From positions 1,248,001 through 1,312,000 of the forward strand of contig OZ244960.1 of assembly GCA_965222605.1 (NCBI GenBank): 64,000 nucleotides of DNA. Reading direction: 5' to 3'. The notes below the pieces were generated by a model. It ran no database searches. It worked only from the letters and a program-made list of their open reading frames with translations, and was not told the origin of the DNA. Positions 1,797 to 36,040 of the stretch are shown here, one piece after another; position 1 is the first letter of the stretch, and every line of letters starts with the position of its first letter. The position numbers were made by a program, and so were the translations under genes. Source of the DNA: Candidatus Latescibacterota bacterium. Its GTDB lineage: Bacteria > Latescibacterota > UBA2968.

Positions 1797-3044
1797 TCAC
1801 TCTACCGCGCACGCATGCACAACATCCGACGCCATATTGATAAACGTATTCCCTTCAATCACCGTTCCGCGCGCTTCTCGCTCGATCGCAATCCCCACCT
1901 TCTGCCTTTCTGCTCCCGTATCCTCAATCCGATTATCCCGAATCTCCACATTGTATGTCGTACCGCGAATCTCAATCCCATATCCATTCTCGGCAAAACC
2001 ATTATCGCGAATCACACACGAATGAATCGCATTCCTGTGCGCTCCTCGAAACTCGGATAAAGGCGTCCGAAACAAAATGCCGACCTTGTGATTACCCACA
2101 ATCTCGCAATTGACAATGCGGTTATCCGTATCTCTGTGCCCAATTGAAATACCAAAATCCCGATTGTCCAAACACGCGCAATCCTCGGCGATGCCATCCG
2201 ACACCCCCCAACAAAAGAAAATACCCTGACTATTGCCCGTTGACCGACACAGACGAAACTGCGGCCGCTGCGATCCACTTCCCGGATGAAACCCCAGATT
2301 GGCATTGTTCTTCGACACACAATTTTCAAAAACAAAATCATCACAAACCTGAAAACTGAACCCATCGCCATTGTAATTGCGCGCCGTCACATTCCGAAAC
2401 GTATAGCGGTGGCAACGCTGCAAAAACACCGCACCTGAATAATTCCCATTGATCTCTTCATTCTCTTCCATATTGCCATCCAGAACTATATTTTCAATAT
2501 TTACATCGCAAACCCCTTCTTCCGCCGTCAAAATGGGGAAAATCGTCGCCAGCGTCGCCCGTTCATCCAACCACATATTTTTATACACGCGCTTGCTAAG
2601 CGAAATCACCCGCCCCTCAATCGCCGTCACAGTATCTTTCACCACCGTCATCCCGGACTTGCCATAAGACCGCAACATCACCCCGCATCCCACGCTGAAC
2701 CCGCTTGTGTCCTCCACCTCAACCTGCGCCTCATACCAATCGGAATCCCGCACCAAAGGGGTAACAACCCCCTCCGCCTTCTTCAGCACCGTCGCACTAC
2801 CCAACCCGCGCACAGTCAAATTTGGATGCAAATAAAGCGCGTTGCGCATCGTATATATCCCCGGCAAAATCTGCAAAACACCGCCGCCCAGACGGTGCAA
2901 ATAATCCACACCAGCCTGCAAAATCCTATCATCGCCCCCCTGCAAATCCCCCTCGCCCTGCCCCACCGTCAACACCATATCCCGCCGTGTTGTCATAGGC
3001 CGATTAGCAGAAAAATCCGACATGTCGAAGCTCCTCAAATTCAT
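1797..3044 (-). CDS. Right-handed parallel beta-helix protein (pectin-lyase-like fold)
   Basis: LQAGVDY...GGGVLQILPGIY N-terminal motif; repeated Asn-ladder units (NNANLGF, GNSQGIF, DNRDFGI, GNHKVGI). Confidence 0.8.
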   Translation of the reverse strand: MNLRSFDMSDFSANRPMTTRRDMVLTVGQGEGDLQGGDDRILQAGVDYLHRLGGGVLQILPGIYTMRNALYLHPNLTVRGLGSATVLKKAEGVVTPLVRDSDWYEAQVEVEDTSGFSVGCGVMLRSYGKSGMTVVKDTVTAIEGRVISLSKRVYKNMWLDERATLATIFPILTAEEGVCDVNIENIVLDGNMEENEEINGNYSGAVFLQRCHRYTFRNVTARNYNGDGFSFQVCDDFVFENCVSKNNANLGFHPGSGSQRPQFRLCRSTGNSQGIFFCWGVSDGIAEDCACLDNRDFGISIGHRDTDNRIVNCEIVGNHKVGILFRTPLSEFRGAHRNAIHSCVIRDNGFAENGYGIEIRGTTYNVEIRDNRIEDTGAERQKVGIAIEREARGTVIEGNTFINMASDVVHACAVE

Positions 3045-3367: not shown

Positions 3368-4560
3368 CAATACCTTCGCCAAAAAAGTATAGTTAAAGGC
3401 CATCTCTGCGTGTATGTTTAAAGCATTTTTTGGATTCCTCGGCCTGCTATATTTTGGCTGGCGATGAGGTTGTAGTGACCAAATCAGGGAAGCAGACCTA
3501 TGGTTTAGGTCGGTTTTTCTCGTCGCTTTACAAGCGTGCCGTGCCCGGCGTATGCTTTTTTTCATTCGCGCTGATCAATACACAGACGCGGCGTGCCTAT
3601 CCTGTGCTATGCCAACAAGTGCTATCGGATAAAGATAAGGATGAACAGACCACCCCGTCAAAGAAAAAGCAAGCAGAAGCAGAAAAAGCCTCAAAAAGTC
3701 CCAAGAGGAAGCCCGGCAGACCCAAAGGGAGCAAGAATAAAGACAAAAGAAACCCCGACTTGTCACCCTATTTGCGCTTTATCCAGACCCACCTTAAAGG
3801 ACTCATACAACGCATGGGCACAGCCTTACCTTTCACCTATCTCGTCTTGGACGGTGCCTTTGGACACAATGATGCCCTCCAAATGACCCGACAATGCAAG
3901 ATGCATCTCATCTCCAAACTCAAAAGCAACTCGGCCTTGTATTTCCCCTATCAAGGCCCTCAAAAAGAGAGAGGCCAAAGACGCATATACGGCGATAAAA
4001 TAGATTACGACAACATACCGCATACCGATTTGAAAAACACAACCTATCAACAGGCCATTCAAACCCAAATTTATCACCTGATCTTGCGACATCAAAGCTT
4101 TGCCGACCCCATAAATGTCGTGCTCATCGTCAAAACGCATCTCGAAACACACAGAAAAGCCCACGTTGTCTTATTCAGCAGTGATCTTAACCTATCCTAT
4201 GAGACACTCATGGACTACTACGCTTTGCGCTTTCAAATTGAGTTCACCTTCCGCGATGCCAAGCAGTTTTGGGGCTTGGAAGATTTTATGAACATCACAC
4301 AAACTGCCGTCCATAATGGCGCCAATCTCGCTTTCTTCATGGTCAATATCGCACACATTATCCTGCAAAATGTGCGACAAGACACCGGCATAACCGATTG
4401 GAGTGTCCAAGACCTCAAGGCGCGGTTCACTGGCCTAAAATATGTCCGCGAAACATTAAAATTGCTTCCGAAAAAACCACATCCTATTTTTATTCGCCAT
4501 ATTAACACACATATCGCCACATTAGGGGCTATTCGCGCCGCTTAAATGGCGAAGGTATTG
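3368..4560 (+). mobile_element. Insertion sequence (DDE transposase, IS701/IS4-like), 1193 bp
   Basis: Perfect 14-bp terminal IRs CAATACCTTCGCCA (3368-3381) and TGGCGAAGGTATTG (4547-4560) enclosing a transposase; no obvious target duplication. Confidence 0.85.
3430..4545 (+). CDS. DDE transposase, probably N-terminally truncated
   Basis: LAGDEVVV (D1), LVLDGAFG (D2), YALRFQIEFTFRDAKQ (YREK-type); in-frame TAA at 3394 and only a TTG start shortly before D1. Confidence 0.8.
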   Translation: MDSSACYILAGDEVVVTKSGKQTYGLGRFFSSLYKRAVPGVCFFSFALINTQTRRAYPVLCQQVLSDKDKDEQTTPSKKKQAEAEKASKSPKRKPGRPKGSKNKDKRNPDLSPYLRFIQTHLKGLIQRMGTALPFTYLVLDGAFGHNDALQMTRQCKMHLISKLKSNSALYFPYQGPQKERGQRRIYGDKIDYDNIPHTDLKNTTYQQAIQTQIYHLILRHQSFADPINVVLIVKTHLETHRKAHVVLFSSDLNLSYETLMDYYALRFQIEFTFRDAKQFWGLEDFMNITQTAVHNGANLAFFMVNIAHIILQNVRQDTGITDWSVQDLKARFTGLKYVRETLKLLPKKPHPIFIRHINTHIATLGAIRAA

Positions 4561-4797
4561 TTCAAGAGCGGATCATTTATGCAATAAGTAGCATAAGGGA
4601 AGTCTGCGATTGATAAACGGCTGTTTGTGGCCTGAATAAAGGCTCTGTAAGTCCTATGTTTATTTGTATCGGGACAGAATTCGGAATTCGGCAACAGCAT
4701 CCAAAGCGGGGTAACTCCACATTCGTGGCGTAAGTCATGCCCCATATATAGAGAGTTTTCCATTCTCTGCAAGAGACAAGTTGTCCACTAAAATAGT

Positions 4798-4938
4798 TCA
4801 ATCCGTCCACGTCACCGTTACAGTGAATGTTTGGCTGGATGGTACCCCCTCATCAGGGGTCACTGTCACTGTGATCATTGCATTGCTCGCACTCATTGGC
4901 GTGATTGCCACGACTGAACCTACCTGGTCCACCACCAC
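4798..4938 (-). pseudogene. Out-of-frame half Ig-like domain at the 3' end of the giant gene
   Basis: VVVDQVGSVVAITPMSASNAMITVTVTPDEGVPSSQTFTVTV resembles DVSGSVVTITPVAEGTATITVIARDVAGSNQTAEQTIAVTV in the 1273-aa ORF. Confidence 0.55.
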
Positions 4939-7900
4939 ACCCTCACGGGAATGGTCTGCGTAGCCGTTGTGCCATCCGTAGAGGTCGCTGTCACTATGAT
5001 CTGGCACTCCTTTATAAAAGGTTGTATCACCAGATCAGGGGGAACCTCGCTCGTCGCCTGGATTGTCACGTTTGAACCGCGCACTCTCACCGTGGCAACG
5101 TCTTCATCGGATGACGTTGCGCTGTAGGCGTCTATACGCTTGTTATACTTCACTTCGAAGTAGTCCGACATGTCCACAGTTGCCTCACTACTGAACCCTG
5201 GAAATGGCGATCTCACATGTAGGAGCACCCTATCAATGCTGTTCTTAGACAAAACAGTTGGCACTGAAAGCAACCACGTACCTTTAAGTGTTTGCCACTC
5301 TGATTTAAGATTATCAAGCCAAGCCGGAACGTTACCAAGACGCAATTCGAGTTGTGCTTCAAAAAGCGATTCGGGTTTAACCGCGCTGCCGTTGGATTCG
5401 AGAACTTCGAGGGTGCTTTCTCTAAAACTGGCTGAATCGCCGTGAAAACCAACAATAATAGGTTTCACATAATAACCATAACTTCCAGAACTCGGCCAAA
5501 AATTATAATATTTTTCACTACTGACATCATGCGTGAAATTCCAGATCACCAGATGCCTGTAGTGGTTTGGCATATCCTTTTCAGCACCACCACTTCCGTC
5601 CAGTTTGCCGCGATTAATGCGATCATACAGATTGGCATAGGGTCGGGAAGCATGGCAATCAATTGGCTGATCTCTACTCTGATCAGCACGCCAATAAACA
5701 TCACCAGTCGTGGAAGACATCACATTTATGCCATGGATGTGATCTGCGAGGTCTTCTACAAGCCCAAACCATATACCGTAATTACCCACAGACCTCATAG
5801 AATAATGGGCATCATTGCCTGCTGTCGTGACCTGATAAACGGAGATGGCTGCACTATCCTTAACTTGAAGAGCGCGATTGACGTTGACAAAGGAGAGACG
5901 CCGCGCCCAAGAATTGACGCATCCGCGAAACAAGACCAAACTCCAGCCACTATTATGCCTGTCATTTTTGTGATGTTCAAAATCCTCCAACCACGAACCG
6001 TGAAAACTGATGTCTTCAACCCCAACTTCCTCGAGAAGAGGCGAATAGTCCCGCACCGTCCAACCATGATCTGCTTCGATCCGAAGGGTATGTATAGGTT
6101 CATTCAGGCGCACCCGATTGTCCCGAATTTCGGCAATGCTGTGCTTTTCAGTCACAGCAACGTCACCCCATGAGTCGCGTTTCGAATATGGGGCAAAAAA
6201 CTCATTAGTGACTGTGTTACTTCTCATACTCAGCACAATCCACTGATCCACCCTGAGTTGGGACGTGTTCGCCACTGTGATCCAGAAGGTTTCTCGAGCA
6301 GCATCTTCTGTAATCCTGGCTAACTCGGTGCTCGTCTCGTTCCATTTTACCCAGTAACTGTGCGGCCAATTAGAGGGCTTAAAAGTGAACATATAGGGAT
6401 TTGTGTAAAGTGTACCGGGAATGGATGGGGGCAGGTGGTTTACCTGTCGTATGACCGTGCCTCCACTTTCACGGCCGCTTCCCCTCAGAACGATATTACT
6501 CTTGCCAATGTAGATGGGTTTGTTGATCATATTGCCTTCGCCATCATCTTCTTTATCAGTATTGGTACTGACCAAAAATTCACCGGGTGGAAAAAAGATA
6601 ATACCACTGCCGTTGGCCTCTGCCGCATCAATGGCAGCCTGAATAGCACTCTGGTCAGACATATTATCATTGGGTACAGCACCATAATCTGTGACGGCGA
6701 ACTGTTGATGCGTGACATTGGGAACAGGTCTTTCAAAATAGTGATATCCCGAGTAGGAAAAATCGGGTAAAATGGGTTGTCTCTTATTCTTTTTGGCCTC
6801 CATAAAATCTGCCCAGGTGAACGATATATCATCTGCTGAAACCGAATGGTTTTGCGCCCATTCTCTGGCGAGTACCTCTTTTTCACGCTGATTGCCAAAT
6901 TCCTCCCAAGTAACACTTTCATCACCATTGAAGTCCGCTTTCAAGACGGGTAATTGGTCCGATGTCCCAAAGGTCCAGGGGGCGTCAGTGTTACCATCAT
7001 TATCTACATCTTCATCGTCCCAGGTCACGTAAATGGTCGGGTTCGCATCGGTCGGAGATCTCATCTCTGATAGCCACTTCCGCCATATTTCTATTGCTGT
7101 TCCATCACCAACGCCATCCGATCTGTAGCCATTTCTTTCCTGCCAGTAGTTGTCGCTAAAAGTTGTTCCTGAACGGGGATCACTCGCCCCGCCGAAAAAT
7201 CCACCAACACGACCACTCCTATTATCCCACACCCTACAAGTCGTGTAGCATATTCTGACGGTGCCAGTATCATTGTTCCACCCAACTAAACCACCAGCGT
7301 TCCTTGAGGTATTCACTATCCCCGTTGAATAGCATGCCATCAAAGTACCGTCATTCTGCCCAACCAGCCCACCTCCGTTCTCGGCATTGTCCACACTCAC
7401 ATTTGCATAGCTCGTGTAAATTCTGCCTTCGTTAAACCCTACCAGACCACCAACCACCCCACCACCCCCCACTTGTCCCGTCACATAACACACAAAAACC
7501 TTACCAGTCATATGACCGACCAAGCCACCAACCCATTGGCGGCCCGTCACATTGACCCCGACGAGTCCCACGTTTTTGATCTCGCCTGACGACTTGCCAA
7601 ACAAACCTGCTTCGTAGCTGTCTCGTTGAATGAACAGATGGGAAATGGTATGACCATTCCCGTGAAACGTAGTCGTGAATAAGTCTGAAGCGGTCCCTAT
7701 TGGCTCCCATCCATCACTTGATTTTATGGTCCAATCTGTGTTCACACTCCCTGAAGCATAGCTATCTGAGTCATTGAAATCCAAATCCTTCGTTAGTTCG
7801 TAGCCCGTGCAGATAGACGGACAGCCCATCCCAGAAGGCGCAAGGGGAAATGCCAAATCATAACTATTCGCATTGTTCGCATCGTCAACTGCGCCGTTAC

Positions 7901-10900
7901 CATCCAGGTCATAGCGGATGGCGTTTAGCTGCTCCAGGTTGGATACCTCAATGAGGCCATCATCGTCATCGTCGTAGTCGTCAAATAACGTCGCTCCTTC
8001 CAGTTCAGACCATTCTCCCTGCCCTTCTCCATTCGTTGCCCGCACCTGAACATCATATTCCGTAGCTGCATCCAAATCAATGAGTGTCAAGTACGCAGCC
8101 TTACCTGTATAATTCCCATTAGAAAACACACCCAATCTACGGAATCTATATTGCACTTCGTAATCGGCAATATCAGCCCAATGAATTGTATTTGTAACAT
8201 CGTCCGTCCAATATATCCTATACCTTCCGCCATCGAGAACAATATCCTGCGAAGATAAAAGTTCTGAGGTAATAAAATCTTCAACATTGCTTCCGTCAAG
8301 ATCAGCACGCCGAATTACATTTCTATTGCTACGGTCCGTCCAATACACCTTATCCCCGAACAAGTCCAATGCAATTTTATCTGCATTTATTCTACCTGAT
8401 CCGCCCGCATCGTTGCTCATAACAATATCTTCGATATTACTCCCATCAAGGTCAGCACGTCGAACTTTCCGATCAATATGATTATTCGTCCAGTAAATCT
8501 TGCCCCCTGAAACATCCAACGCAATATCCCGTGGAAAACCAACATCAAGGATAATTTCACTATTACTCCCATCAAGGTCGGCACGTCGAACACCATTCAC
8601 GATGTTCAAACCCTCGCTATGTGTCCAATAAATCTTGCCCCCTATAATATCCAATGCGATGTTCGCCACAACAGTTGGCCACCCTGTAGGCACAATATCT
8701 TCGATATCGCTTCCGTCAAGGTCAGCACGTCGAACTTTACCCGCTTCTGTCCAGTAAATCTGGCCCCTTACAAAATCCACCGCAATGTCTCCAGGACTAT
8801 TCAACCCCGTAGTAATAATGTTTTCAATATTGCTTCCGTCAAGATCAGCGCGTTGTATTCTGCTTCCGCCACTATCTATCCAATATATTTTATTTTTCAA
8901 CAAATCCAACGCAAGATCACGCGGCTCAGCCAGCGGAGTAGATAACTCATACGCCATAGCCATCATCAAGCTATTCCAAGTTGACCCCGTTACCTTCAGT
9001 TCACTAAGCGCAGGTGCCGTCACATCCGAAACAGTAACGGTAATCGCCTGTTCTGTCGTCAATGATTGATCCCCTAAATTATTTGTCGCCGTGACCTCAA
9101 CGATATATGAGTTATCCATATTATCATCCGACGCCATTTCATAGTCCGGTGCAGTCTTGAAGGTCAACAAATCTATATCTGAAAAAAATGAAAACTTATC
9201 CGCATCAACTCCACCCGTAATGGCGTAACTACTCGCATTACTCGCGGATACTATACCCACAAAAGGATTGTTTTCACCTACATCAAAACTCGTAACATTG
9301 AAAGACGGCGAAACCCTTTCTCTCGTCATACCTTCACCCGATTGAGACCATCCACCCTCCGCTTCCGAACTCACTACACGCACCTGTATATCATACTCAG
9401 TATTGCCATCCAAACCTACAATCGTCATAGTGTTATCCGTACCCATATAATCCGCATCGGCAAATGTATTCGCCCCACTAATGCTATATTGCACATCATA
9501 GTCAATATCAAGATCAGCACGTCCAATCTTACGCGTCCCACCATCCGACCAGTATATCTTGTTCCCCGCAACATCCAACGCGATACCCCGTGGATTATCC
9601 AACCCCATAGTGATAACATCTTCAACATTGCTCCCGTCAAGATCAGCACGTCCAATCTTACGCGTCCCACCATTCGACCAGTATATCTTGTTCCCCGCAA
9701 CATCCAACGCGATACCCCATGGATTATCCAACCCCATAGTGATAACATCTTCAACATTGCTCCCGTCAAGATCAACTTTCCGTATCTTATCTGTCCCAAC
9801 ATCCAACCAGTATATCTCACCATGCAATATATCCAACGCGATACCCCGTGGATTATCCAACCCCATAGTGATAACATCTTCAACATTGCTCCCGTCAAGA
9901 TCAGCATACCGAATCTTATTTGCATTACTATCCGTCCAATATATTTTTCCCCCTGCAATATCCAATGCAATACCCTTCATAGAACCCGACGTAACAATAG
10001 TTTCCACATTACTCCCATCAAAATCGGCTCTCTGTATTCTATTCGGACTGGTCTCCGCCCAGTATATCTTCTCCTCAGAAGTATCCAACGCAATATCCAG
10101 TAGATATCTATCACCGATAACCTCTTCAACATTACTCCCATCAAAATCAGCTCTCCATATTCCCGATAATCCGTCCGCCCAGTATATCTTCTCCTCAGAA
10201 GTATCCAACGCAACCGCAAGCAACCCCTGAGCCTGAGAATCAAATTCAAATTTTGCGGTCTCCCATGTTACCGTCACACTGCTTGGCGTTGTCTCCGTAA
10301 CTATTGGGGCATTCGGTATCTCCGGCACATGGCGCACATCCACAACGACAACTTCAATCGTATCCGTCGCGGTCAGTGTCCGAACACCCGCACCACTTGT
10401 CGCCATAACCACCACTATATATTCATTGTCTTCTACACCACTAACAGGCATAATGCTTTCAACATCTGTGGGTAACTCATAATTTGGAGCAACTTTAAAT
10501 CGTAATGCACCTGTACCTGAAACAATTGAGAAATGGTCTTGATCAGCACCGCCAACAATCGCATAACCTGTAACGCTATCCTCACTATCAGCATCATCAG
10601 CGACGACTACACCCACATTTATCTTATTTTCCAGTATGTCGAACCTCGCGATACTGGTGAAAGACGGTGCGCTGTTCTGCGTTGTTATCCCTTCAACTGT
10701 ATCTGACCACGCACCTGTACCTTCATCATTCTCTGCGCGCACCTGTATATCATAGCCCTTGTTCTGCGCCAAGCTACTAATCGTGTATTCAAGACTGCCA
10801 CTTGTCCAGGCATCTGTAACCACTGTCCACCTGGTATCATCTGCTTTATCTGTTGCACTTGCATTACTGGGAATATGGCGCACATCATAGGCACTGATCG

Positions 10901-13900
10901 CTGGCCCTGTATTATCAGGTACTGTCCAACTCACCTTCAGACTGTTAAGCGTCACTGCTGCTATCGTCGGAACAGATGGCTTACCTGGTGCTTCGTTCAC
11001 ATCACTCACTGTCACAGTAAGCGTCTGTGTCGTTGTCAGAACACGATCACCTGCCCCACCCGTCGCTGTAACGATCACGATGTATTCATTGTTATTGGCT
11101 GCATTGGCTGGGTCTGCGCTGACAACATCCTCTGGACGTTCATAATCCAGCGCAGTCTTGAAGCTCAACACGCCCGTATTTGAAACAATCTCGAACTGAT
11201 CCTTATCTACACCACCTGTGATAGCATAGCCTGTGATAGTGTCATCACTATCGGCATCTGTCGCTGTCACTGTCACAACCGATGTGCTGTTCTCATTCAC
11301 GGAGATCGCTGATACGCTTGTGAACACGGGTGCTACATCGGCCTTTGTCGTCCCTGCAACGGAGGTTGACCATCCACTCGTCCCTTCATCATTACTCGCA
11401 CGCACTTGAATATCATAACCTGTGTTCTGACTTAGGCTGCCAATCGTGTATGCAAGATTACCTCCATTATTACTCGTCCACGCATCCGCAACCTCTGTCC
11501 ACTTCGTATCATCTGCCTTATCAGAGGTACTGGCACTACTGAGGATGTAGCGCATGTCATAACTACTAATATCAGGACCTGTGTTCGTCGGCGCGCTCCA
11601 CTGCACCTTCAGGCTATTCAATGTTACTTCTGCCACTGTCGGGGTATCAGGCACACCGGGTGCTTCGTTCACATCACTCACTGTCACCGTAAGCGTCTGT
11701 GTAGCGGTCAACGCACGATCACCTGTACCACTCGTCGCTTCTACCACCACAATGTACTTATTATTCTTCTCAGCATTGGCTGGGTCTGTGCTGACAACAT
11801 CCTCTGGACGCTCATAGTCCAGCGCAGTCTCGAAGCTCAACACGCCGGTCTGGTCATCAATCTCAAACTGGTCCTTATCTACACCCCCCGTAATCGCATA
11901 GCCCTTGATGCTATCATCGTTATCAACATCTGTCGCTGTCACTGTCACAATAGCACCTGTGCTGTTCTCATTCACGGAGATCGCTGATACGCTTGTGAAC
12001 ACGGGCACTACATTGGCCTTTGTCGTCTCTGCAACCGACGACGACCAACTACTCGTCCCTTCATCGTTCTTTGCACGCACTTGAATATCATAGCTTGTAT
12101 TCTGACTCAGACTACCAATCGTGTATGCAAGATTACCTCCATTATTACCCGTCCACGCATCCGCATCCACCGTCCACTTGGCGTCATCTGCCTTATCTGT
12201 CTCACTGGCACTGCTGAGGATATAACGCACATCATAAGCACTGATCGCAGGTCCCGTGTTCGTCGGGGCTGTCCAACTGATCTTTAAACTATTAAATGTC
12301 GCCTCTGCTACTGTCGGTGCTGAAGGCGTGCCAGGGACTTCTGTCTCATCTGTCACCGTCACGGTAAGCGTCTGCGTCGCTGTCAACGCACGATCACCCG
12401 CACCACTCGTCGCTTCTACAATCACGATGTATTCATTATTACCCGCTACATTGGCTGGGTCTGCAACCGCGACATCAGTGGGCGACTCATAGTTCGGGGC
12501 CACATTGAACGTCAGCACACCGGTTGCTTCCACAATAGAGAACGCTGACCCATCTGCGCCACCTGTAATCTCATACCCTGTGATCGTATCATCTGTATCT
12601 GCATCCGTCGCACTCACCGTGACAATAACCCCTGTGATGTTCTCACTGACTGACAGAGGCTGGACAACCACGAAGACTGGGGCCTGATTCTGCGTGGTCA
12701 TACCAGCCTTTGTAGCTGACCAATCACTGGTCCCCTCATCATTCTCTGCGCGAACCTGCACATCATAGCTTGTGTTCTGACTCAGACTACCAATCGTGTA
12801 TTCCAAAGAACCACTCGTCCACGCATCTGTCACCTCTGTCCAATTGCTATCATCTGTTTTATCTGTGTCACTCGCACTGGTCAAGATATAACGCACATCG
12901 TAGGCACTAATATCAGGACCCGTGTTCGTCGGCGCACTCCAACTGATCTTCAAGCTGTTAAACGTCGCTTCTGCTATCGTCGGTGCAGCAGGCGCAGCAG
13001 GCGGTTCAGTCACATCTGTCACTGTGATGGTAAGCGTCTGTGTTGCTGTCAGTTCCCGATCACCTTCACCACTCGTCGCTTCAACGAACACAATGTATTC
13101 ATTGTTGTCCGCATTATTCTCAGGATCAGTTACTGCTACATCCTTTGGATCCTCATAATTGGGCACTGCCTTGAACGTCAGCACACCGGTAGATGCTCCA
13201 ATAGAGAACTGCTCCCCATCCGCGCCAGTAGCAATCCCATAACTTTCTATATCATCACCCGTATCTGCATCACTCGCCGTCACCGTCACGATATCCGCCG
13301 TGCTGTTCTCACTCAGAGTGAACGATGATGCACTCGTGATAACTGGTGCGACATTGGCCTGTGTCATACCTGCAACAGTATCTGACCAACCACTGGTCCC
13401 TTCATCATTCTCTGCACGCACCTGCACATCGTAGCTTGTGTCCTGGTCCAGACTGCCAATCGTGTATTCGAGATTACCACCATTACCACTTGTCCACGCA
13501 TCCTCAACCTCTGTCCAGTTGGCATCTACATTCTCATCTGCACTGGTCGGAATGTAGCGTATATCATAACTACTGATCGCAGGTCCCGTGTTCGTCGGCG
13601 CACTCCAACTCACCTTCAGGCTATTAAATGTGGCTTGTGCTATCGTCGGGGCTGCGGGCTTACCGGGTGCCTCATTGTCCTGATCCGTCACGGTGATGGT
13701 AAGCGTATCTCTTGCCGTCAACGCTCGGGCATTCTCCCCACCTGTCGCTTCAACAATCACGATGTATTCATTATTATCCGCTGCATTGTCATTATCTGAA
13801 TTGTTCGCATCAGTAAAAGCCACATCCTCAGGATCCTCATAGTTTGGGGAGGACTTGAACGTCAATACACCGGTCGCTTCACCAAGAGAGAACTGTGACC

Positions 13901-16900
13901 CATCTGCACCAGTAACAATAGCATAGCCGGTGATATTATCATCACCATCTGCATCCGTCGCAGTGACTGTCACAATGGCTCCTGTGCTGTTCTCATTCAC
14001 TGACTGCGGCTGGACAACCACGAAGACTGGGGCCTGATTCTGCGTGGTCATACCAGCCTTTGTAGCTGACCAATTACTTGTCCCTTCAGCATTCTCTGCG
14101 CGCACTTGTACATCATAGCTCGTGTTCGAAGACAGGTTCTCTATTGTGTAGGTCAGATCACCACTCGTCCACGCATCATCCTCCACCGTCCAGTTGGCGT
14201 CCACGTTCTCATCCTCACTGCTGAGGATATAACGCACATCATAAGCAGTGATAGATGGTCCTGTGTTCGTCGGCGCACTCCATTGCACTTTTAGGCTATT
14301 AAATGTCGCTTCTGCTATCGTCGGGGTGGCAGGCGTGCCTGGTGCTTCGCCAGCCACATTACTCACTGTCACTGTAATCGTCTGCGTTGCCGTCAACTCA
14401 CGATCACCCACACCACTCGTCGCTTCTACAATCACGATATACGCGTTATCCGTATCACTATCCCCTGGACGCTCAAAGTCCGGCGCAGTCTTGAAAGTCA
14501 ACGCACCGGTCTGGTCATCAATCTCAAACTGAGACTCATCTGCGCCACCTGTAATCTCATACCCTGTGATATTGTCGTCCGTATCACTGTCTGCTGCTGT
14601 CACTGTGACAACATCTGCTGTGCTGTTCTCACTCACTGAAATCGTTGACGTACTCGAGATGACTGGTGCGACATTGGCCTGTGTCACACCTGCAACAGTA
14701 TCTGACCAGCCACTGATCCCTTCATCATTCTCTGCACGCACTTGCACATCGTAGCTTGTGTTCTGGTCCAGGCTACTAATCGTGTATTCGAGATTGCCAC
14801 CATTACCACTTGTCCACGCATCCTCAACCTCTGTCCAGTTGTTGTCATTTGCTTTATCTACGTCACTTGCACTACTGAGGATGTAACGCACATCATAAGC
14901 AGTTATAGATGGTCCTGTGTTCTCAGGGGCGGTCCATTCTACCTTCAGGCTATTAAACGTCGCTTCTGCTATCGTCGGCGTAGCAGGCACACCGGGTGCC
15001 TCTGTCTCCACATCACTCACTGTCACGGTAAGCGTCTGTGTTGCTGTCAGTTCCCGATCACCTGCACCACTCGCCGCTTCTACAATCACGATGTATTCAT
15101 TATCACCCGCTCCACTTGCTGGGTCTGCAACCGCGACATCAGTGGGAGACTCATAGTTCGGGGCTACATTGAACGTCAGCACACCGGTTGCTTCCACAAT
15201 AGAGAACGCTGACCCATCTGCAGCGTCAACTATCCCATACCCTGTGATGTCGTCCTCAGCATCATCGTCCGTCGCACTGACTGTCACAATGGCTGTGATG
15301 ATGTTCTCACTCACGGTGATCGGCGCGACAGCAGCGAAGACCGGTCCCTGGTTTTCTACCGTCACCCCTGCAACAGTATCTGACCAGCCACTTATGCCTT
15401 CATCATTCTCTGCGCGAACCTGCACATCATAGCTTGTGTTCTGGTCCAGGCTGCCAATCGTGTATTCCAAAGAACCACTCGTCCACGCATCTTCTACCAC
15501 CGTCCAGTTGGCGTCATCTGTCTCATCTGCATTCGTCAGGATATAACGCACATCATAGGCACTAATATCAGGACCCGTGTTCGTCGGCGCACTCCATTCC
15601 ACCTTCAGACTATTAAACGTCGCTTCTGCTATCGTCGGCGTAGCTGGCTGATCCGGTGCCTCATTCACATCCGTCACGGTCACTGTAATTATCTGTGTTG
15701 TTGTCAACTCACGATCACCCGCACCACCCGTTGCTTCAACGAACACAATGTATTCATTGTTGTCCGCATCATTCTCAGGATCAGTTACTGCTACATCCTT
15801 TGGATCCTCATAATTGGGTGATGCCTTGAATGTCAGCACGCCCGTCGCTTCAACGATGGAGAACTGTGACCCATCTGCACCGGTAATGATCGCATACCCT
15901 GTGATGCCGTCATCCTCATCTGCATCTGTTGCTACTACTGTGCCAACTGTTGTGGCTGTCGTGATGTTCTCCGATACGGTGAACGATGAGACACTTGTAA
16001 TGACTGGCGCCTGGTTCTGTATCGTTGTCCCTGTCACCGATGAAGACCACGCGCTTGTCCCTTCATCACTCTCTGCACGCACTTGCACATCGTAGCTTGT
16101 GTTCTGGTTCAGGCTGCCAATCGTGTATTCCAAAGAACCACTCGTCCACGCATCTTCAACCTCTGTCCACTTCGTATCATCTGTCTCATCTGCACTGGTT
16201 AGAATGTAGCGTATATCATAAGCACTGATCGCAGGTCCTGTGTTCGTTGGGGCGGTCCAACTGTTCTTTAAACTATTAAACGTCGCCTCTGCTATCGTCG
16301 GTGTAGCAGGCTGACCCGGCGCCTCGGTCACATCGCTCACAGTGATCGTCAGTGTATCCCTTGCTGTCAGCGCTCGACTATCCGCACCACCCGTCGCCTC
16401 AACGAACACAATGTATTCATTGTTGTCCGCATCATTCTCAGGATCAGTTACCGCTACATCCTTTGGATCCTCATAGTTGGGGGCTACCTTGAAGGTCAAC
16501 ACGCCAGTAGATGCACCAATAGAGAACGCTGACCCATCTGCACCTGTAGCAATCCCATAACTTTCTATATCATCATCTGTATCAGCATCACTCGCCGTCA
16601 CCATCACGATATCTGCTGTGCTGTTCTCACTGACTGTAAACGATGATGCACTCGTAATGACCGGAGCCTGATTCGCACTCGTTGTCCCACTGACCGTATC
16701 TGACCATGCACCCGTCCCTTCATCATTCTCTGCGCGAACCTGCACATCGTAGCTTGTGTTCTGGTCCAGACTGCCAATCGTGTATTCCAAAGAACCACTC
16801 GTCCACGCATCCTCAACCTCTGTCCAGTTGGCGTCATCTGTCTCATCGGCACTGGTCAGAATGTAGCGCACATCGTAGGCACTAATCGCAGGTCCCGTGT

Positions 16901-19900
16901 TCGTCGGTGCGTTCCACACTACCTTTAAGCTATTAAACGTTGCTTCTGCTATCGTCGGTGCTGAAGGTGTGCCAGGGACTTCTGTCACATCTGTCACTGT
17001 CACGGTAAGCGTCTGTGTTGCTGTCAGTTCCCGATCACTTGCACCACCCGTCGCAGAGACCACCACGATATATTCATTATTACCCGCTACATTGGCTGGG
17101 TCTGTAACCGCGACATCAGTGGGCGACTCATAGTTCGGGGCCACATTGAACGTCAGCACACCGGTTGCTTCCATAATAGAGAACGCTGACCCATCTGCAG
17201 CGTCAACTATCCCATACCCTGTGATGTCGTCCTCAGCATCATCGTCCGTCGCACTGACTGTCACAATGGCTGTGATGATGTTCTCACTCACGGTGATCGG
17301 CGCGACAGCAGCGAAGACCGGTCCCTGGTTTTCTACCGTCACACCTGCAACAGTATCTGACCAGCCACTTATGCCTTCATCGTTCTCTGCGCGCACTTGC
17401 ACATCATAGCTTGTGTTCTGACTCAGACTGCTAATCGTATATTCAAGAGTACCACCATCACCACTTGTCCACGCATCCGCATCCACCGTCCACTTGGCGT
17501 CATCTGTCTCATCTGCACTGGTCAGAATATAGCGCACATCATAGGCACTAATATCAGGACCCGTGTTCGTCGGCGCACTCCATTCCACCTTCAGACTGTT
17601 AAATGTCGCCTCTGCTATCGTCGGGGCATCGGGTGTGCCGGGAGCCTCTGTATCCACATCCATCACTGTCACCTTGATCGTATCCATTGCCGTCAGTGCG
17701 CGCGCACCTGCACCACCCGTCGCAGAGACGATTACGATATATTCATTATTGCCTGCAACATTGTCATTGGCAGAATTGTTCGAATCGGTAAATTGAACAT
17801 CCTCAGGAGCCTCATAGTTGGGGGCAGTCTTGAAGGTCAACACGCCAGTAGATGCACCAATAGAGAACTGTGCCCCATCTGCATCGTCAACAATAGCATA
17901 GCCGGTGATATTATCATCCTCATCTGCATCCGTCGCAGTGACTGTCACAATGGCTCCTGTGCTGTTCTCATTCACTGACTGCGGCTGGACAACCACGAAG
18001 ACTGGGGCCTGATTCTGCGTGGTCATACCAGCCTTTGTAGCTGACCAATCACTGGTCCCCTCATCATTCTTCGCGCGTACCTGCACATCGTAGCTTGTGT
18101 TCTGGTCCAGACTGCCAATCGTGTATTCCAAAGAACCACTCGTCCACGCATCCTCAACCTCTGTCCAGTTGGCGTCATCTGTCTCACTTGCACTCGTAAG
18201 AATGTAACGCACATCGTAGGCACTAATGGTAGGACCCGTGTTCGTCGGTGCGTTCCACACTACCTTTAAGCTATTAAACGTTGCTTCTGCTATCGTCGGT
18301 GCTGAAGGTGTGCCAGGGACTTCTGTCTCATCTGTCACTGTCACGGTAAGCGTCTGCGTTGCCGTCAACTCACGATCACCCACACCACTCGTCGCTTCTA
18401 CAATCACGATGTATTCATTATCACCCGCTCCACTTGCAGGGGCTGTGCTAACAACATCAGTAGGTGCCTCATAGTTGGGTGCTACCTTGAAAGTCAACAC
18501 ACCCGTCGCTTCAACGATGGAGAACTGTGACCCATCTGCACCGGTAATGATCGCATACCCTGTGATGCCGTCATCCTCATCTGCATCTGTTGCTACTACT
18601 GTGCCAACTGTTGTGGCTGTCGTGATGTTCTCCGATACGGTGAACGATGAGACACTTGTAATGACTGGCGCCTGGTTCTGTATCGTTGTCCCTGTCACCG
18701 ATGAAGACCACGCGCTTGTCCCTTCATCACTCTCTGCGCGAACCTGCACATCGTAGCTCGTGTTCTGGTCCAGGCTACTAATCGTGTATTCGAGATTGCC
18801 ACCATTACCACTTGTCCACGCATCCTCAACCTCTGTCCAGTTGGCGTCATCTGTCTCATCCACACTGGTCAGGATATAACGCACATCATAACCACTAATA
18901 TCTGGTCCTGTGTTTGTCGGTGCTGTCCATTCTATCTTCAAGCTGTTCACCGTTGCTTCTGCTATCGTCGGGGCAGCAGGCGTGCCAGGGACTTCTGTCA
19001 CATCACTCACCGTCACTGTAAGCGTCTGCGTTGCCGTCAACGCACGATCACCCACACCACTCGTCGCTTCTACAATCACGATGTATTCATTATTACCCGC
19101 TACATTGGCTGGGTCTGCAACCGCGACATCAGTGGGCGACTCATAGTTCGGGGCTACATTGAACGTCAGCACACCGGTTGCTTCCACAATAGAGAACGCT
19201 GACCCATCTGCAGCGTCAACTATCCCATACCCTGTGATGTCGTCCTCAGCATCATCGTCCGTCGCACTGACTGTCACAATGGCTGTGATGATGTTCTCAC
19301 TCACGGTGATCGGCGCGACAGCAGCGAAGACCGGTCCCTGGTTTTCTACCGTCACCCCTGCAACAGTATCTGACCATGCACCCGTCCCTTCATCATTCTC
19401 TGCTCGCACTTGCACATCATAGCTCGTGTTCTGGTCCAGGCTGCCAATCGTGTATTCGAGATTGCCACCATTACCACTTGTCCACGCATCCGCATCCACC
19501 GTCCATTTAGAATCATCTGCCTTATCTGTCTCACTTGCACTGCTGAAAATGTAACGCACATCATAAGCACTAATATCAGGACCCGTGTTCGTTGGCGCAC
19601 TCCATTCCACCTTCAGACTATTAAATGTCGCCTCTGCTATCGTCGGTGTAGCTGGCTGACCCGGCACCTCGTCATCCTGATCCGTCACGGTGATGGTCAG
19701 TGTATCTCTTGCCGTCAACGCTCGGGCATTCTCCCCACCTGTCGCTTCAACGAACACAATGTATTCATTGTTGTCCGCATTATTCTCAGGATCAGTTACT
19801 GCTACATCCTTTGGATCCTCATAATTGGGCACTGCCTTGAACGTCAGCACACCGGTAGATGCTCCAATAGAGAACTGCTCCCCATCCGCGCCAGTAGCAA

Positions 19901-22900
19901 TCCCATAACTTTCTATATCATCACCCGTATCTGCATCACTCGCCGTCACCGTCACGATATCCGCCGTGCTGTTCTCACTGACTGTGAACGTTGATGCACT
20001 CGAGATGACTGGTGCGACATTGGCCTGTATCACACCTGCAACAGTATCTGACCAATCACTTATCCCTTCATCATTCTCTGCGCGAACCTGCACATCGTAG
20101 CTTGTGTTCTGGTCCAGGCTACTAATCGTGTATTCGAGATTACCACCATTACCACTTGTCCACACCTCCTCAACCTCTGTCCAGTTGGCATCTACATTCT
20201 CATCTGCACTGGTCGGAATGTAGCGTATATCATAACTACTGATCGCAGGTCCCGTGTTCGTCGGGGCTGTCCAGTTCACCTTCAGACTGTTAAACGTTGC
20301 TTCGGCTATCGTCGGGGCAGCAGGCGCAGCAGGTGGTTCAGTCACATCCGTCACCGTTACTGTCAGCGTATCTCTTGCTGTCAACGCTCGGGCATCCTCT
20401 CCGCCTGTGGCCTCAACATACACGATATATTCATTATCACCCGCTCCACTTGCTGGATCACTCACCAAAACATCAGTAGGTGCCTCATAGTTCGGGGAGG
20501 CACTGAAGGTCAACACGCCACTATCTGCCCCAATAGAGAACTGCCCTCCATCTGCACCTGTAGCAATGCCATAACTCTCAATGTCATCACCCGTATCTGC
20601 ATCACTCGCACTGATCGTCACGATATCACCCGTGCTATTCTCTGCCACACTAATCGCATCAATTAACGTAATAACTGGTGCAACATTCTCTGTAGTCATA
20701 CCCTCAACACTGTCCGACCAGCCACTTGTCCCCTCATCACTCTCAGCAAAAATCTGAACATCATACTCTGTATTCTGAGCCAATGGACTGATCGTATATT
20801 CAAGCGCGCCACCAGTACCACTCGTCCAGGCATCTTCTACCTCTGTCCACTTCGTATCATCTGCTTTATCTGTCTCACTGGCACTGCTGAGGATATAACG
20901 CACATCATAGGCACTGATCTCTGGTCCCGTGTTCGTCGGGGCTGTCCAACTCACCGTCAGGCTGTTAAATGTCGCCTCTGCTATCGTCGGTGCTGAAGGC
21001 GTGCCAGGGACTTCTGTCTCATCTGTCACCGTGACGGTAATCGTCTGCGTTACCGTCAACTCACGTGTACCTGTTCCACTCGTCGCCTCAACCACTACGA
21101 TATACTCATTATTGCCCGATGCATTCACAGGATCTGCACTAACAACATCCCCTGGATGCTCAAAGTCCGGCGCAGTCTTGAAAGTCAACGCACCGGTCTG
21201 GTCATCGATCTCAAACTGTGACCCATCTGCGCCACCTGTAATCTCATACCCTGTGATATTGTCGTCCGTATCACTGTCTGCTGCTGTTACAGTGACAACA
21301 TCTGCTGTGCTGTTCTCACTGACTGTGAACGTTGATGCACTCGAGATGACTGGTGCGACATTGGCCTGTATCACACCTGCAACAGTATCTGACCAATCAC
21401 TTATCCCTTCATCATTCTCTGCGCGAACCTGCACATCGTAGCTTGTGTTCTGGTCCAGGCTACTAATCGTGTATTCGAGATTACCACCATTACCACTTGT
21501 CCACACCTCCTCAACCTCTGTCCAGTTGGCATCTACATTCTCATCTGCACTGGTCAGAATGTAGCGTATATCATAAGCACTGATCGCAGGTCCCGTGTTC
21601 GTCGGAGCCGTCCATTCTACCTTCAGACTGTTAAACGTTGCTTCTGCTATCGTCGGTACAGCAGGCGCAGCTGGCGGTTCAGTCACATCCGTCACAGTGA
21701 TGGTAAGCGTATCCCGTACCGTCAACACTCGGGCATTCTCTCCACCTGTCGCTTCAACAATCACGATGTATTCATTATTATCCGCTGCATTGTCATTATC
21801 TGAATTGTTCGCATCAGTAAAAGCCACATCCTCAGGATCCTCATAGTTTGGGGAGGACTTGAACGTCAATACACCGGTCGCTTCACCAAGAGAGAACTGT
21901 GACCTATCTGCACCAGTAACAATGGCATACCCTGTGATACTATCATCTGCATCGGCGTCTGTCGCACTCACTGTGCCAACCGTTGTGGCTGTCGTAATGT
22001 TTTCACTCACGGTGAACGACGATGTGCTTGTAATCACTGGGGCCACATTCACACTCGTCATCCCTTTAACCGTATCTGACCAATCACTTGTCCCTTCATC
22101 ACTCTCAGCAAGAATCTGAACATCATACTCTGTATCCTGAGCCAATGGACTGATCGTGTATTCCAGCGCGCCACCAGTACCACTCGTCCAAGCATCTGTT
22201 ATCACCGTCCAGTTAGCATCATCTGTCTCATCGGCACTCGTCAGGATATACCGCACATCATAAGCACTAATAGCAGGTCCCGTGTTCGTCGGCGCTGTCC
22301 AGTTCACCTTCAAGCTATTAAATGTCGCCTGTGTTATCGTCGGGGCATCGGGTGTGCCGGGAGCCTCTGTATCCACATCCATCACCGTCACTTTGATCGT
22401 ATCCATTGCCGTCAGAACACGCGCACCTGCACCACCCGTCGCAGAGACGATTACGATATATTCATTATTGCCTGCAACATTGTCATTGGCAGAATTGTTC
22501 GAATCGGTAAATTGAACATCCTCAGGAGCCTCATAGTTGGGGGCAGTCTTGAAGGTCAACACGCCAGTAGATGCACCAATAGAGAACTGTGCCCCATCTG
22601 CATCGTCAACAATAGCATAGCCGGTGATATTATCATCCTCATCTGCATCCGTCGCAGTGACTGTCACAATGGCTGTGATGATGTTCTCACTCACGGTGAT
22701 CGGCGCGACAGCAGCGAAGACCGGTCCCTGGTTTTCTACCGTCACCCCTGCAACAGTATCTGACCATGCACCCGTCCCTTCATCACTCTCTGCACGCACT
22801 TGCACATCATAGCTTGTGTTCTGGTCCAGGCTGCCAATCGTGTATTCGAGATTGCCACCATTACCACTTGTCCACGCATCTTCAACCTCTGTCCACTTCG

Positions 22901-25886: not shown

Positions 25887-27000
25887 CGCACCGGTCTGGT
25901 CTCAAACTGAGACTCATCTGCGCCACCTGTAATCTCATACCCTGTGATATTGTCGTCAGTATCACTGTCTGCTGCTGTTACAGTGACAACATCTGCTGTG
26001 CTGTTCTCACTCACTGAAATCGTTGACGTACTCGAGATGACTGGTGCGACATTGGCCTGTGTCACACCTACAACAGTATCTGACCATCCACTGGTCCCCT
26101 CATCATTCTCTGCGCGAACCTGCACATCGTAGCTTGTGTTCTGACTCAGGCTACCAATCGTGTATTCCAAAGAACCACTTGTCCACGCATCTTCAACCTC
26201 TGTCCAGTTGGCATCTACATTCTCATCCGCACTGGTCAGGATATAACGCACATCATAAGCACTAATATTTGGTCCTGTGTTTGTCGGTGCTGTCCAGTCT
26301 ATCTTCAAGCTGTTCACCGTTGCTTCTGCTATCGTCGGTGTAGCAGGCGTGCCAGGGACTTCTGTCTCATCTGTCACTGTCACTGTAAGCGTCTGCGTTG
26401 CCGTCAACTCACGATCACCCACACCACTCGTCGCTTCTACCACCACGATGTATTCATTGTTATTGGCTGCATTGGCAGGGTCTGTAACCTCAACATCTGC
26501 AGGTGCCTCATAGTTGGGTGCCACCTTGAAAGTCAACACACCCGTTTGATCACCAATCTCGAACTGTGACCCATCTGCATCATTAACAATGCCATAACCC
26601 TCTATGCTGTCATCACTATCACCGTCTGTCGCTGTGACTGTACCAATGTCCCCTGTGCTGTTCTCACTGACTGAGATCGCCGATACATTCGTGAACACAG
26701 GTGCCTGATTCTGCTGCGTCGTCCCCATAACCGATGAAGACCACACACCTGTCCCCTCGTCATTCTTCGCTCGCACCTGTATCTCATAACCCGTGTTCTG
26801 CTCCAGGCCCGTGATCGTGGCACTCAAACCCGTGCCATCGTGAGGCCAAGAAGTGAAGTCACCACTGTTGCCGACCCGATACTGCACATCGTAAGCTGTG
26901 ATCGCAGGTCCCGTATTCGTCGGCGCTGTCCAACTTATGGTCAAGCTATTTAGCGTTGAGGCTGATACTGTCGGTACTGCTGGCTGACCCGGCACCTCGG
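10330..27000 (-). repeat. Tandem array of 25 FN3+cadherin units, about 670 nt each
   Basis: Counted 25 occurrences of the T[F/V/L]NSL FN3 motif at about 670-nt spacing; long near-identical DNA blocks, e.g. 18475-19450 vs 23215-24190. Confidence 0.9.
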
Positions 27001-29704: not shown

Positions 29705-29820
29705 CTATCGATATCTTCAAAGAAGGGCTACTTGTAATGAGCACGATGTGGTTTACGTTGTGCATTTGGATCGAACGGGATTTGTCTGGGGTTGTTTGGC
29801 AGAACCTGTGAGACTTCGAT

Positions 29821-29943: not shown

Positions 29944-29983
29944 AAATAAGAAAAACCGAGTGCCATCACCTATGACACCCGGT
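29944..29983 (-). terminator. Intrinsic terminator in the giant gene leader
   Basis: Minus strand ACCGGGTGTCAT-AGGTG-ATGGCACTCGGT (12 bp, 2 G-U pairs valid only on this strand) followed by TTTTCTTATTT. Confidence 0.8.
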
Positions 29984-30148
29984 TGATTCATTGTTTATGC
30001 CGGTCAAATGCCACAGGCTGTTAGACTCTCTCTATAGCTCAGATTGAGTTCGGTCCTTTCGGAAACCGAAACCATAGCATTTAACCGGCTGGAAATAGAT
30101 CAAATTATACCTGGTTCTTTCCAGCCGGAGCTATAAATAGAGTCTAAC
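29944..30148 (-). ncRNA. Structured RNA: candidate riboswitch/attenuator or sRNA, family not recognised
   Basis: Starts 6 nt after a -10 box; closing stem plus two internal hairpins (one GAAA-capped), an alternative 18-bp helix, then a terminator. Confidence 0.6.
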
Positions 30149-30154
30149 GATCTT

Positions 30155-30271: not shown

Positions 30272-31123
30272 TTATACCTGAGCACTGACCTCACACACCT
30301 TCAAATTCGCATATTCGCCAATCAAAGGTGCCATCTGTCGAAAACCAATCTTGCCACCGCCCAGCAAAGGTCCATACGTCTGACCATCATCAACCCAGTG
30401 GAAAATCTTCAAATCGCGAATATAAAAAACAACCTCTGATCCGCATTTGATCAGCGTAATCGGGTATGGCGGTCTGGCATCGTCAACTGAAGGTAGAGGA
30501 TCGGCACCTTGACAGACCATGTGAAAACCATAACTCTTGCGCAAATTGCAAACCTGAAAAGCGCGTTCCTTGAGAGCCTTTCGCCGAAAATAAGACACGT
30601 GCAACGCATTGATATCGCTGCTGTGATACTGCTTGTATTCGCCAGCCCGCGGCGCCAATGACGAATCAAACACATCTTCACCCCCTCGCCCCAAAGCAGA
30701 AAAAAACAAAATGCACAACCCCGGCTCGCGCACCGGCCAAAAATCCCACGTCACGGCAATATCCGCTGGAAAATCTTCAGGACACCAGAAAACAAAATTT
30801 GCCGCCTGCCCTTCCCCGGGATCGCGGCGGTTCTCCATTCGCATGCGACCATTTGGAAAAGTGATTGCAGCATCTCCCTCCATCCGAAACCCTTCAATAT
30901 CTGACGCTGAAGACAGGGGATTGTCGTAAAGCAATTCGCCAAATTCAAAATTATCCATAACACCACTCCTGATGCGTTGACGTATTGGGTTCTTCGCCGC
31001 ATGAACAGCCTGCCTCAAAAACAGCGGCGCACTGCCAAAAGATACAGAAAACAATACCATATTGCTGCATTTTATAAACGCCCTGCGCGTCCATTCCATC
31101 ATTTTATCTCTCGTGTTATTCAA
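30272..31123 (-). CDS. YesU/DUF1961 family protein with an in-frame Tat-like leader; alternative start at 30958
   Basis: LYDNPLS...FRMEG, NFVFWCPEDFP, ALHVSYFRR, CNLRKS, GGKIGFRQMAP; TRRAFIK leader; AGGAG RBS before ATG 30958. Confidence 0.8.
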   Translation of the reverse strand: MNNTRDKMMEWTRRAFIKCSNMVLFSVSFGSAPLFLRQAVHAAKNPIRQRIRSGVMDNFEFGELLYDNPLSSASDIEGFRMEGDAAITFPNGRMRMENRRDPGEGQAANFVFWCPEDFPADIAVTWDFWPVREPGLCILFFSALGRGGEDVFDSSLAPRAGEYKQYHSSDINALHVSYFRRKALKERAFQVCNLRKSYGFHMVCQGADPLPSVDDARPPYPITLIKCGSEVVFYIRDLKIFHWVDDGQTYGPLLGGGKIGFRQMAPLIGEYANLKVCEVSAQV

Positions 31124-35800: not shown

Positions 35801-36040
35801 GAACCATAGCCGATCCTGGCTATCCAGGTGGATGGCAAAAACTCGGTCACTACACAAACCGTCCTGTTCGGTAAACGTCTCGAACTTGTCCCCATCAAAA
35901 TGGCTGACACCACTATCCCAGGTAGCAATCCAGAGACAACCCTTGTTGTCTTCGGCAATATGTTCGGTGCGCACTCCAGCCAGGCCATTGGCAAGGGAAT
36001 AAGTCCGCCAGGTGCCCTTTCTATCGAGTGACTTGATCAT
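32834..36040 (-). CDS. Sigma54-interacting regulator with N-terminal Reg_prop beta-propeller repeats and Y_Y_Y domain
   Basis: Repeated ED..G.LW(F/I)GT units, [12 protein letters not shown]...GDYTFQVRA, Walker [14 protein letters not shown], Walker [16 protein letters not shown], Fis-type HTH. Confidence 0.9.

Follow-up and report, generated by a model that had tools for sequence, protein, structure and literature searches.

A giant stalked gene with a PL29-like lyase domain near its end, and a standalone relative of that domain, in a Latescibacterota genome

Layout of the giant and standalone genes

The window considered here, the whole 64,000-nucleotide stretch of contig OZ244960.1 (positions 1,248,001 to 1,312,000, GenBank assembly GCA_965222605.1) from a Candidatus Latescibacterota bacterium, carries on its minus strand a giant repeat-protein gene and a standalone gene, both of which encode a DUF4955 domain that resembles the polysaccharide lyases of family PL29. 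An earlier note on this DNA had explained the pair by a local duplication in which an enzyme became grafted onto an adhesin, so that one isoenzyme would be tethered and the other free. The two domains are paralogous along their length, as the note had it, and they are not sisters. Paralogy in itself is ordinary; more interesting is that the giant belongs to a family of stalked genes with apparently exchangeable PL29-like ends. The two genes are laid out as follows.

25883..29704, minus strand: 1,273-residue 5' portion of the giant, whose gene start is at 29704; it runs out of frame at its end
same reading frame, N-terminus: signal-peptide-like hydrophobic segment (by eye)
same reading frame, residues 54-145: cohesin-like domain (Pfam Cohesin, E 1.7e-4, under the cut-off)
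same reading frame, residues 182-232: dockerin-like double EF-hand (Dockerin_1, E 2.7e-4, under the cut-off)
25883..25910, minus strand: frame break within a cadherin-like repeat, 7 nt short against intact repeat copies at 25252 and 14542
10400..25886, minus strand: stalk, FN3 alternating with cadherin-like repeats (from motif counts; borders approximate)
8190..10240, minus strand: two YWTD/LDL-receptor-class-B-like propeller regions with FN3 and cadherin units between them (Ldl_recept_b, E 1.4e-55, and motif positions)
6828..8018, minus strand: GLUG-motif region immediately before the lyase-like domain (Pfam Glug, E 2.7e-5, over the cut-off)
5271..6827, minus strand: PL29-like (DUF4955) lyase-like domain, residues 6354-6872 (PF16315, 144 bits; NF058554, 314 bits)
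4920..5270, minus strand: C-terminal tail of 116 amino acids
31127..32818, minus strand: standalone PL29-like (DUF4955) gene, 563 amino acids, with a signal-peptide-like N-terminus by eye and without a stalk (PF16315, 134 bits; NF058554, 363 bits)

The giant gene totals about 8,260 amino acids and is split between two open reading frames (ORFs) in the present assembly, the 6,988-residue ORF at 4920-25886 being merely its 3' part. Its cap, made up of the cohesin-like and dockerin-like domains, stays just under the Pfam cut-offs (Cohesin 22.3 against 24.1, Dockerin_1 21.5 against 22.9); the dockerin of a 712-residue paralogue is over the cut-off, at 26.6. Cadherin, FN3 and Ig units identified with Pfam come after the cap in the 1,273-residue ORF. 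In the 6,988-residue ORF we counted 22-24 FN3 motifs and 25 cadherin-like motifs, or 24-26 and 28 with the 5' ORF added; Pfam matches to fn3 and Cadherin were obtained both in the 5' ORF and within the final 1,988 residues of the giant. The RTX family was absent among the Pfam matches of those 1,988 residues, no search for secretion systems having been made. The tail is Ig-like by eye and resembles the Big_2-matching tail of the 712-residue paralogue. Since this tail comes after the lyase-like domain, the "tip" of the earlier note is near-terminal rather than the extreme end, and we use the word in that sense. That one copy is stalk-borne and the other free also stands, with the correction that the stalked gene consists of two ORFs and starts at 29704. 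Just past the stop codon of the giant, a short stretch at 4760-4910 (minus strand) resembles, by eye, the remnant of another Ig-type tail.

The frame break raises the question of whether the giant has been freshly broken in the present strain, leaving a secreted stub of 1,273 residues with or without a 6,988-residue product that lacks a signal peptide. The deletion of 7 nt is clean when set against the two intact repeat copies, a transposase lies close downstream, and another giant gene of this genome is frameshifted and truncated. On the other hand, the 21 kb that follow the break contain no stop codon, the counterpart of the giant in a related genome (G014) is a single intact frame of 6,392 amino acids, and the break falls within near-identical repeats, where consensus errors are to be expected. 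Contigs of four runs were placed on 24500-30500; none of the pieces listed spans the break, and the comparison is confounded by reads that come from other copies of the repeat. A real deletion is a possibility that we take seriously while holding it somewhat less probable than an intact gene; it bears on the present strain only and leaves the model of the gene family unaffected.

The lyase-like domains and their phylogeny

BLASTP of the standalone protein against the 6,988-residue ORF gave a single alignment, of query residues 63-561 with residues 6354-6872 (window 6827-5271), in which 295 of 525 columns are identical (56%; 593 bits, E 0.0). All the motifs quoted in the earlier note, including HHKN, YANLYDR and HLV(I/F)WNF, are visible in it. 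The DNA is 65.7% identical over 1,498 nt. The ratio of nonsynonymous to synonymous divergence (dN/dS, NG86 method), which the note had suggested computing along with the alignment, is 0.32 with a dS of 1.02, and indicates purifying selection on both domains. With dS at about 1.0, any duplication shared by the tip and the standalone gene is therefore old. The similarity is well past chance, yet it is not peculiar to this pair, as four further copies exist in the genome; at 56% identity the two may also differ in substrate.

Both copies match DUF4955 (PF16315) far above its gathering cut-off of 25 bits, and both match PF12708, a pectate-lyase-like N-terminal family. The NCBIfam profile NF058554, which describes the BT3328 family of hyaluronan endo-lyases, matches both over profile positions 305-840 (E 3.1e-108 for the standalone protein and 2.7e-93 for the tip). 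Its equivalog cut-off of 1100 bits is reached neither by the two copies nor by any of 13 further homologues; we therefore call the copies PL29-like, not BT3328 equivalogs. PL29 has a predicted parallel beta-helix fold. Matches of the domain to solved beta-helix enzymes are confined to the N-terminal 80 or so positions, its Atlas feature neighbors are pectate-lyase-like or beta-helix clusters, and our sequence search turned up no full-length solved structure for it. BT3328 is the founder of PL29 and performs endolytic beta-elimination of chondroitin sulfate (CS), dermatan sulfate (DS) and hyaluronan (HA) at the cell surface (PMC9067506; PMC7793863; PMC12877422), PL29 members are endo-lyases on HA, CS and DS (PMC9067506; bioRxiv 10.64898/2026.10.07.757250), and one of them, SoPL29, is endo-acting and modular and carries CBM105 (bioRxiv 10.64898/2026.10.07.757250).

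Residue conservation was examined in an alignment of 98 rows; with our two copies set aside, the other 96 rows are conserved to 75% or more in 100 columns. The tip keeps 93 of these columns and the standalone protein 96, every conserved His included. Of 22 polar or aromatic sites chosen for comparison, the tip departs from the commonest residue in one, with N for D, and the same Asp-to-Asn change occurs in several other homologues, including a 643-residue paralogue. The conserved polar residues of the family are retained in both copies, and both would be expected to work like PL29 lyases.

The genome under study (G000) contains six DUF4955 domains, in proteins of 563, 643, 712, 869, 2,904 and 6,988 amino acids. 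Two distant copies in the genome share 67.6% and 63.7% identity with the standalone protein, against 56.2% for the tip, and its orthologues in three related genomes (G019, G015 and G017) share 87-96%. In three trees (52, 26 and 39 rows) the standalone protein groups with these orthologues and next with the clade of the 643-residue protein, whose gene at C1:2244539 is a relative of it; the tip falls outside. In the approximately unbiased (AU) test, a clade made of tip and standalone was rejected with p 2.1e-5 (26 of the 52 rows) and p 9e-57 (26 of the 39 rows). The 52-row tree leaves out two partial domains with low coverage (G009 and G013) and three duplicate loci; 26 of the 52 rows were omitted from the 26-row tree, and 13 of the 39 from the second AU test on account of long branches, an identical row or speed. 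The 26-row tree, the careful 39-row tree and those of the second AU test used the LG+G4 model, which is more liable to long-branch error than a mixture model.

These results bear directly on the proposed local duplication. In its favor, the two copies lie on the same strand with about 24 kb between them, and a lyase sits at both positions flanking the YesU homologue in 3 of 17 genomes (G000, G014 and G015). By raw identity the standalone protein is also the nearest paralogue of the tip in the genome, by a margin of about one point (56.2% against 54.9%), and the dS of the pair, 1.02, compares with 1.04-2.89 for other paralogues. Both AU tests, however, reject the two as a clade, the standalone gene is closer to distant copies than to its neighbor, dS is about 1.0, and the subtype of the tip is present at 85% identity on another stalk. 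We regard a local duplication grafted onto an adhesin as very improbable, and a recent local copy is ruled out by the AU tests. Within the same family, the standalone gene probably represents an older free lyase with a separate line of inheritance. As the deep nodes of the trees are poorly resolved, an ancient duplication at the locus may have occurred.

Three other groupings were considered and dropped. The 26-row tree joins the tip to the tip of the other giant (94/93), which would make a single clade of tethered domains; this was flagged as long branches meeting. A clade of nine large modular proteins, seen in a quick 39-row tree with a support of 93 in the Shimodaira-Hasegawa-like approximate likelihood-ratio test, fell apart in the careful tree and is not claimed. 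Nor is the giant an expanded orthologue of the 850-residue gene that occupies its position in other genomes, the two being 49% identical and in separate clades.

DUF4955 was found in 24 of the 41 genomes searched. It occurs in all 20 same-genus relatives, in 22 of 24 genomes of the family and in 1 of 16 of the sister family. Named homologues are labelled as metagenome-assembled genomes of Latescibacteria or Gemmatimonadetes/Gemmatimonadota, with one from Poribacteria, and 8 of the 97 longer homologues are FN3-bearing relatives of the DUF4955 type. One orthologue of the standalone gene (L036:13457-14353, G009) has an in-frame internal deletion that fuses query residues 1-138 to 386-563, leaving 298 amino acids.

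Probable exchange of end modules and the variable slot

The giant of G014 occupies the same slot as ours. Its cap is 72% identical to that of the G000 giant, its tail is similar, and its GLUG region is the best match within the genus to that of the G000 giant (56%). The lyase does not follow: it is 71% identical to the 712-residue gene of G000 (77.6% over 1,586 nt of DNA), merely 49% to the present tip, and sister to the 712-residue gene with a support of 100/100. A clade of the two giants' tips was rejected in the AU test (p 4.9e-5). When informative sites of the G014 giant were scored for agreement with the 712-residue gene or with the present giant, the counts were 133:29 in the lyase and 13:17 in the tail (Fisher p 2.4e-5).

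A second case is P0281, a fragment of 1,943 amino acids. Eight segments of its stalk are 82-98% identical to the G000 giants at C1:560933 and C1:4036776, against 44-68% to the present stalk, and in its GLUG region and the start of its lyase the identity to the present giant is 71-87%, with 85% over 203 residues of the lyase. The same join survives in G000 as a broken relic at C1:560395-561220, where C1:560395-560650 is 91.5% identical to the start of the giant's GLUG region. The twin stalk at C1:4036776 bears a lyase of a third subtype, with 48% identity to the tip; the stalked lyase P0280 nests within short 850-residue forms (100/97); and the standalone gene of G014 is itself a mosaic, in which blocks alternate between the standalone and the 643-residue types. 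Two stalk types thus share an end module, and different lyase subtypes are found with a single stalk type or locus.

It could be argued that stalked lyases are ancestral and that the short free forms of 712 and 850 residues arose by deletion of repeats, so that little swapping would be needed. The 712-residue gene, which consists of cap, lyase and tail, is in effect a stalkless giant and is sister to the G014 tip; the slot is occupied either by a giant or by an 850-residue capped lyase; and a truncated twin giant is present in G000. Taken alone, however, stalk collapse leaves unexplained the discordance of lyase and tail, the end module shared by two stalk types and the mosaic standalone gene of G014, and the 850-residue lyases of the slot are just 49% identical to the tip. 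We consider it an unlikely account of the whole, and favor swapping of the ends.

The shared cap is carried by 17 ORFs, two of them weakly. Of four sibling ends scanned, two match Peptidase_M8, one matches LRRs (leucine-rich repeats) only and one matches no end family. The truncated twin, at C1:560395-565735, is a frameshifted copy of the 2,904-residue giant at C1:4036776 (96.8% over 3.7 kb); it retains only the start of a GLUG region resembling that in the window, and another 6.8 kb downstream of it is duplicated at 98%. Clusters of capped giant genes of 0.8-3.6 thousand amino acids, several in tandem, lie at C1:916876-997274, 1313591-1343217 and 3574633-3589310, and end in M8-peptidase-like or LRR modules. 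With the cap as query, 90 ORFs of G000 were matched, mostly via the dockerin-like double EF-hand, at either end of diverse secreted proteins; this element may serve the whole lineage as a tag for anchoring or sorting. The GLUG region has 89 matches in G010 and 16 in G018, many of them within open frames of 1,000-6,400 amino acids; a different family of giant proteins is greatly expanded in some members of the genus. G000 also has, at C1:2788220-2789812 and 156664-159213, two beta-helix-like paralogues that are only distantly related (22-24% identity); one of them has the N-terminal modules of the 869-residue DUF4955 protein with the other enzyme domain at the end, a further module exchange.

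Around the giant and the standalone gene, the following features were recorded.

1797..3044, minus strand: conserved beta-helix gene of 415 amino acids, downstream border of the variable slot
3430..4545, plus strand: DDE transposase that separates the giant from the beta-helix gene
29954..29984, minus strand: 13-bp hairpin with a T run, located between the YesU and giant genes (by consensus match only; 6 such matches where 3.8 are expected)
30272..31123, minus strand: DUF1961/YesU homologue between the two lyase-like genes (PDB 1oq1, E 5.8e-77)
32834..36040, minus strand: sigma54-type activator whose propeller resembles a periplasmic sensor (Reg_prop, Y_Y_Y); it lies upstream of the standalone gene at a distance of 15 nt

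YesU and the 415-residue beta-helix gene bound a slot that is variable, with flanking genes 91-99% identical in amino acid sequence. Of the 17 genomes examined, the slot is occupied by a lyase-ended giant in two (G000 and G014) and by a capped lyase of about 850 residues in six (G003, G007, G012 and G015, with a split gene in G017 and a partial one, included in no tree, in G013); it is empty in four (G004, G008, G019 and G020), filled by an unrelated block in three (G005, G009 and G011), and unreadable or differently arranged in two (G006 and G001). The YesU protein of Bacillus subtilis is described as a binder of fucosylated glycans (PMC6120924). The hairpin is a possible terminator, which would part the transcripts of YesU and the giant. 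No match to a sigma54 promoter was found in 29705-30271 or directly upstream of the standalone gene, and the excess of matches sits in repeats. The sigma54 propeller regulator is present in tandem or multiple copies at the corresponding loci L053, L057 and L060 (G004, G005 and G015). Elsewhere in the window, genes for a HerA helicase, a HAS-barrel protein and a NurA nuclease stand in series at 38765-42869, with HerA and the adjoining glycosyltransferase kept in relatives, and two tandem Uma2-family genes lie at 57376-58624 between two MqnC/CofH-type radical SAM genes of a menaquinone cluster.

Proposed function and relation to known systems

The domain order, the homology to BT3328 and PL29, the residue conservation, the separate positions of tip and standalone gene and the incongruence of modules are firm. 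From these, the explanation that we think probable is that the giant is exported, that its cap holds it at the cell surface or assembles it, that an FN3/cadherin extender carries the PL29-like lyase outward, that the short paralogues act as free enzymes, and that the ends are swapped by recombination. Export would proceed through the N-terminal signal-like peptide, and the cohesin/dockerin-like cap would anchor or assemble the protein. The stalk would then hold the PL29-like domain far out in a glycan-rich host matrix, where the tip may perform endo beta-elimination on a chondroitin- or hyaluronan-like or other uronic-acid glycan. The end would be exchanged by homologous recombination in common repeats, the GLUG region and the tail, so that the enzyme end would have come from the family of stalked genes and not from the neighboring standalone gene. 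The host setting would be that of a sponge-type Latescibacterota lineage.

A number of points weigh against this explanation, beginning with the rankings by raw identity and dS, the poorly resolved deep nodes and the equivalog cut-off mentioned above. Owing to the frameshift, the full-length giant is perhaps not produced in the present strain. P0281, as a fragment of a 7.4-kb contig, could be chimeric; module exchange may have run in either direction; and stalk collapse may account for part of the pattern. The retention of PL29 catalytic residues is read from column conservation. Finally, among the 32 window proteins scanned there was no SusC/D, PL8, GH88 or sulfatase, unlike in known PL29 loci. 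Genome-wide, the 154 sulfatase matches and 11 heparinase II/III-like matches speak for the explanation, but there is no GH88 over the cut-off (one weak match), and this counts against a standard glycosaminoglycan (GAG) pathway.

The lack of a GH88 above the cut-off would also suit a giant that grips host glycans as an adhesin, with a tip that binds glycans and has little or no catalytic role. The stalk, YWTD and GLUG regions are of adhesin type, sibling giants can end in LRR binding domains, and for sponge symbionts, cadherin and FN3 genes have been interpreted as factors of attachment (PMC8163846). The conserved His, Asp, Glu and Arg positions of the tip are nevertheless not eroded, and other siblings end in a peptidase family, which suits the display of enzymes. 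A purely gripping tip therefore seems to us rather improbable next to a displayed lyase. Going further than the present gene, it is tempting to speculate that the lineage as a whole uses a mix-and-match "enzyme on a pole", in which near-megadalton capped stalks with exchangeable ends (PL29-like subtypes, M8-like peptidases, LRRs) are reshuffled by recombination between paralogous loci and vary in the manner of polymorphic toxins so as to digest and match the glycans of the host matrix; we offer this tentatively.

Modular PL29 enzymes are already known, as is the link of cadherin and FN3 with host-glycan use by co-occurrence. A term search of the Latescibacterota genome paper PMC12993501 gave no mention of PL29, cadherin or dockerin, and one of a second such paper, PMC4454575, no mention of dockerin or cohesin; in PMC11669647, PL29 is mentioned once. 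In the literature searched, subscription papers and supplements being outside it, we found nothing on DUF4955 or PF16315, nor on stalked PL29 or PL29 module swapping in this lineage. Compared with BT3328 (BtCDH) of Bacteroides thetaiotaomicron and SoPL29 of Segatella oris, the present domains are homologous at NF058554 positions 305-840 and share the C-terminal DUF4955 part. An extracellular placement would be common to both, and SoPL29 is likewise modular with its CBM105. Unlike in these enzymes, the first 300 or so profile positions are lacking here, the score is far below the equivalog cut-off, and there is no SusC/D-PL8-GH88 locus; instead, one genome has six copies in several subtypes, two of them on stalks of 2,900-8,300 amino acids.

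Giant repeat adhesins with ligand-binding or catalytic tips, such as the RTX adhesins of the LapA, MpIBP and SiiE type and the stalked surface glycosidases of streptococci, likewise have a long Ig-like extender that places a functional module far from the cell, and their repeat number varies, as it does between the giants of G000 (about 8,260 residues) and G014 (6,392). In place of a type I secretion or sortase signal, the present giant has a signal-like peptide and a cohesin/dockerin-like cap (by eye), and it differs further in the alternation of FN3 with cadherin and in its PL29-like end. Polymorphic toxins of the Rhs and contact-dependent inhibition (CDI) types exchange C-terminal modules on a conserved N-terminal scaffold, and relic or partial copies of these modules lie elsewhere in the genome, as is the case here. 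The present family differs in that its modules are glycan lyases, peptidases or LRRs instead of toxins and are followed by a tail; no immunity genes were seen, and no fixed junction motif has been established.

A further parallel comes from sponge symbionts, in which cadherin and FN3 are enriched in lineages with genes for the use of host GAGs, and for which the study by Robbins et al. (PMC8163846) suggests a link between attachment and glycan use. If our explanation holds, that link would become directly testable in sponge-type symbionts with separately expressible domains of 520 residues, and one genus would provide a panel of divergent PL29-like enzymes, set against two characterized PL29 members in the literature consulted. 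What that study describes, so far as its available text shows, is co-occurrence within genomes; here an adhesin-like stalk and a candidate GAG lyase would be united in one polypeptide.

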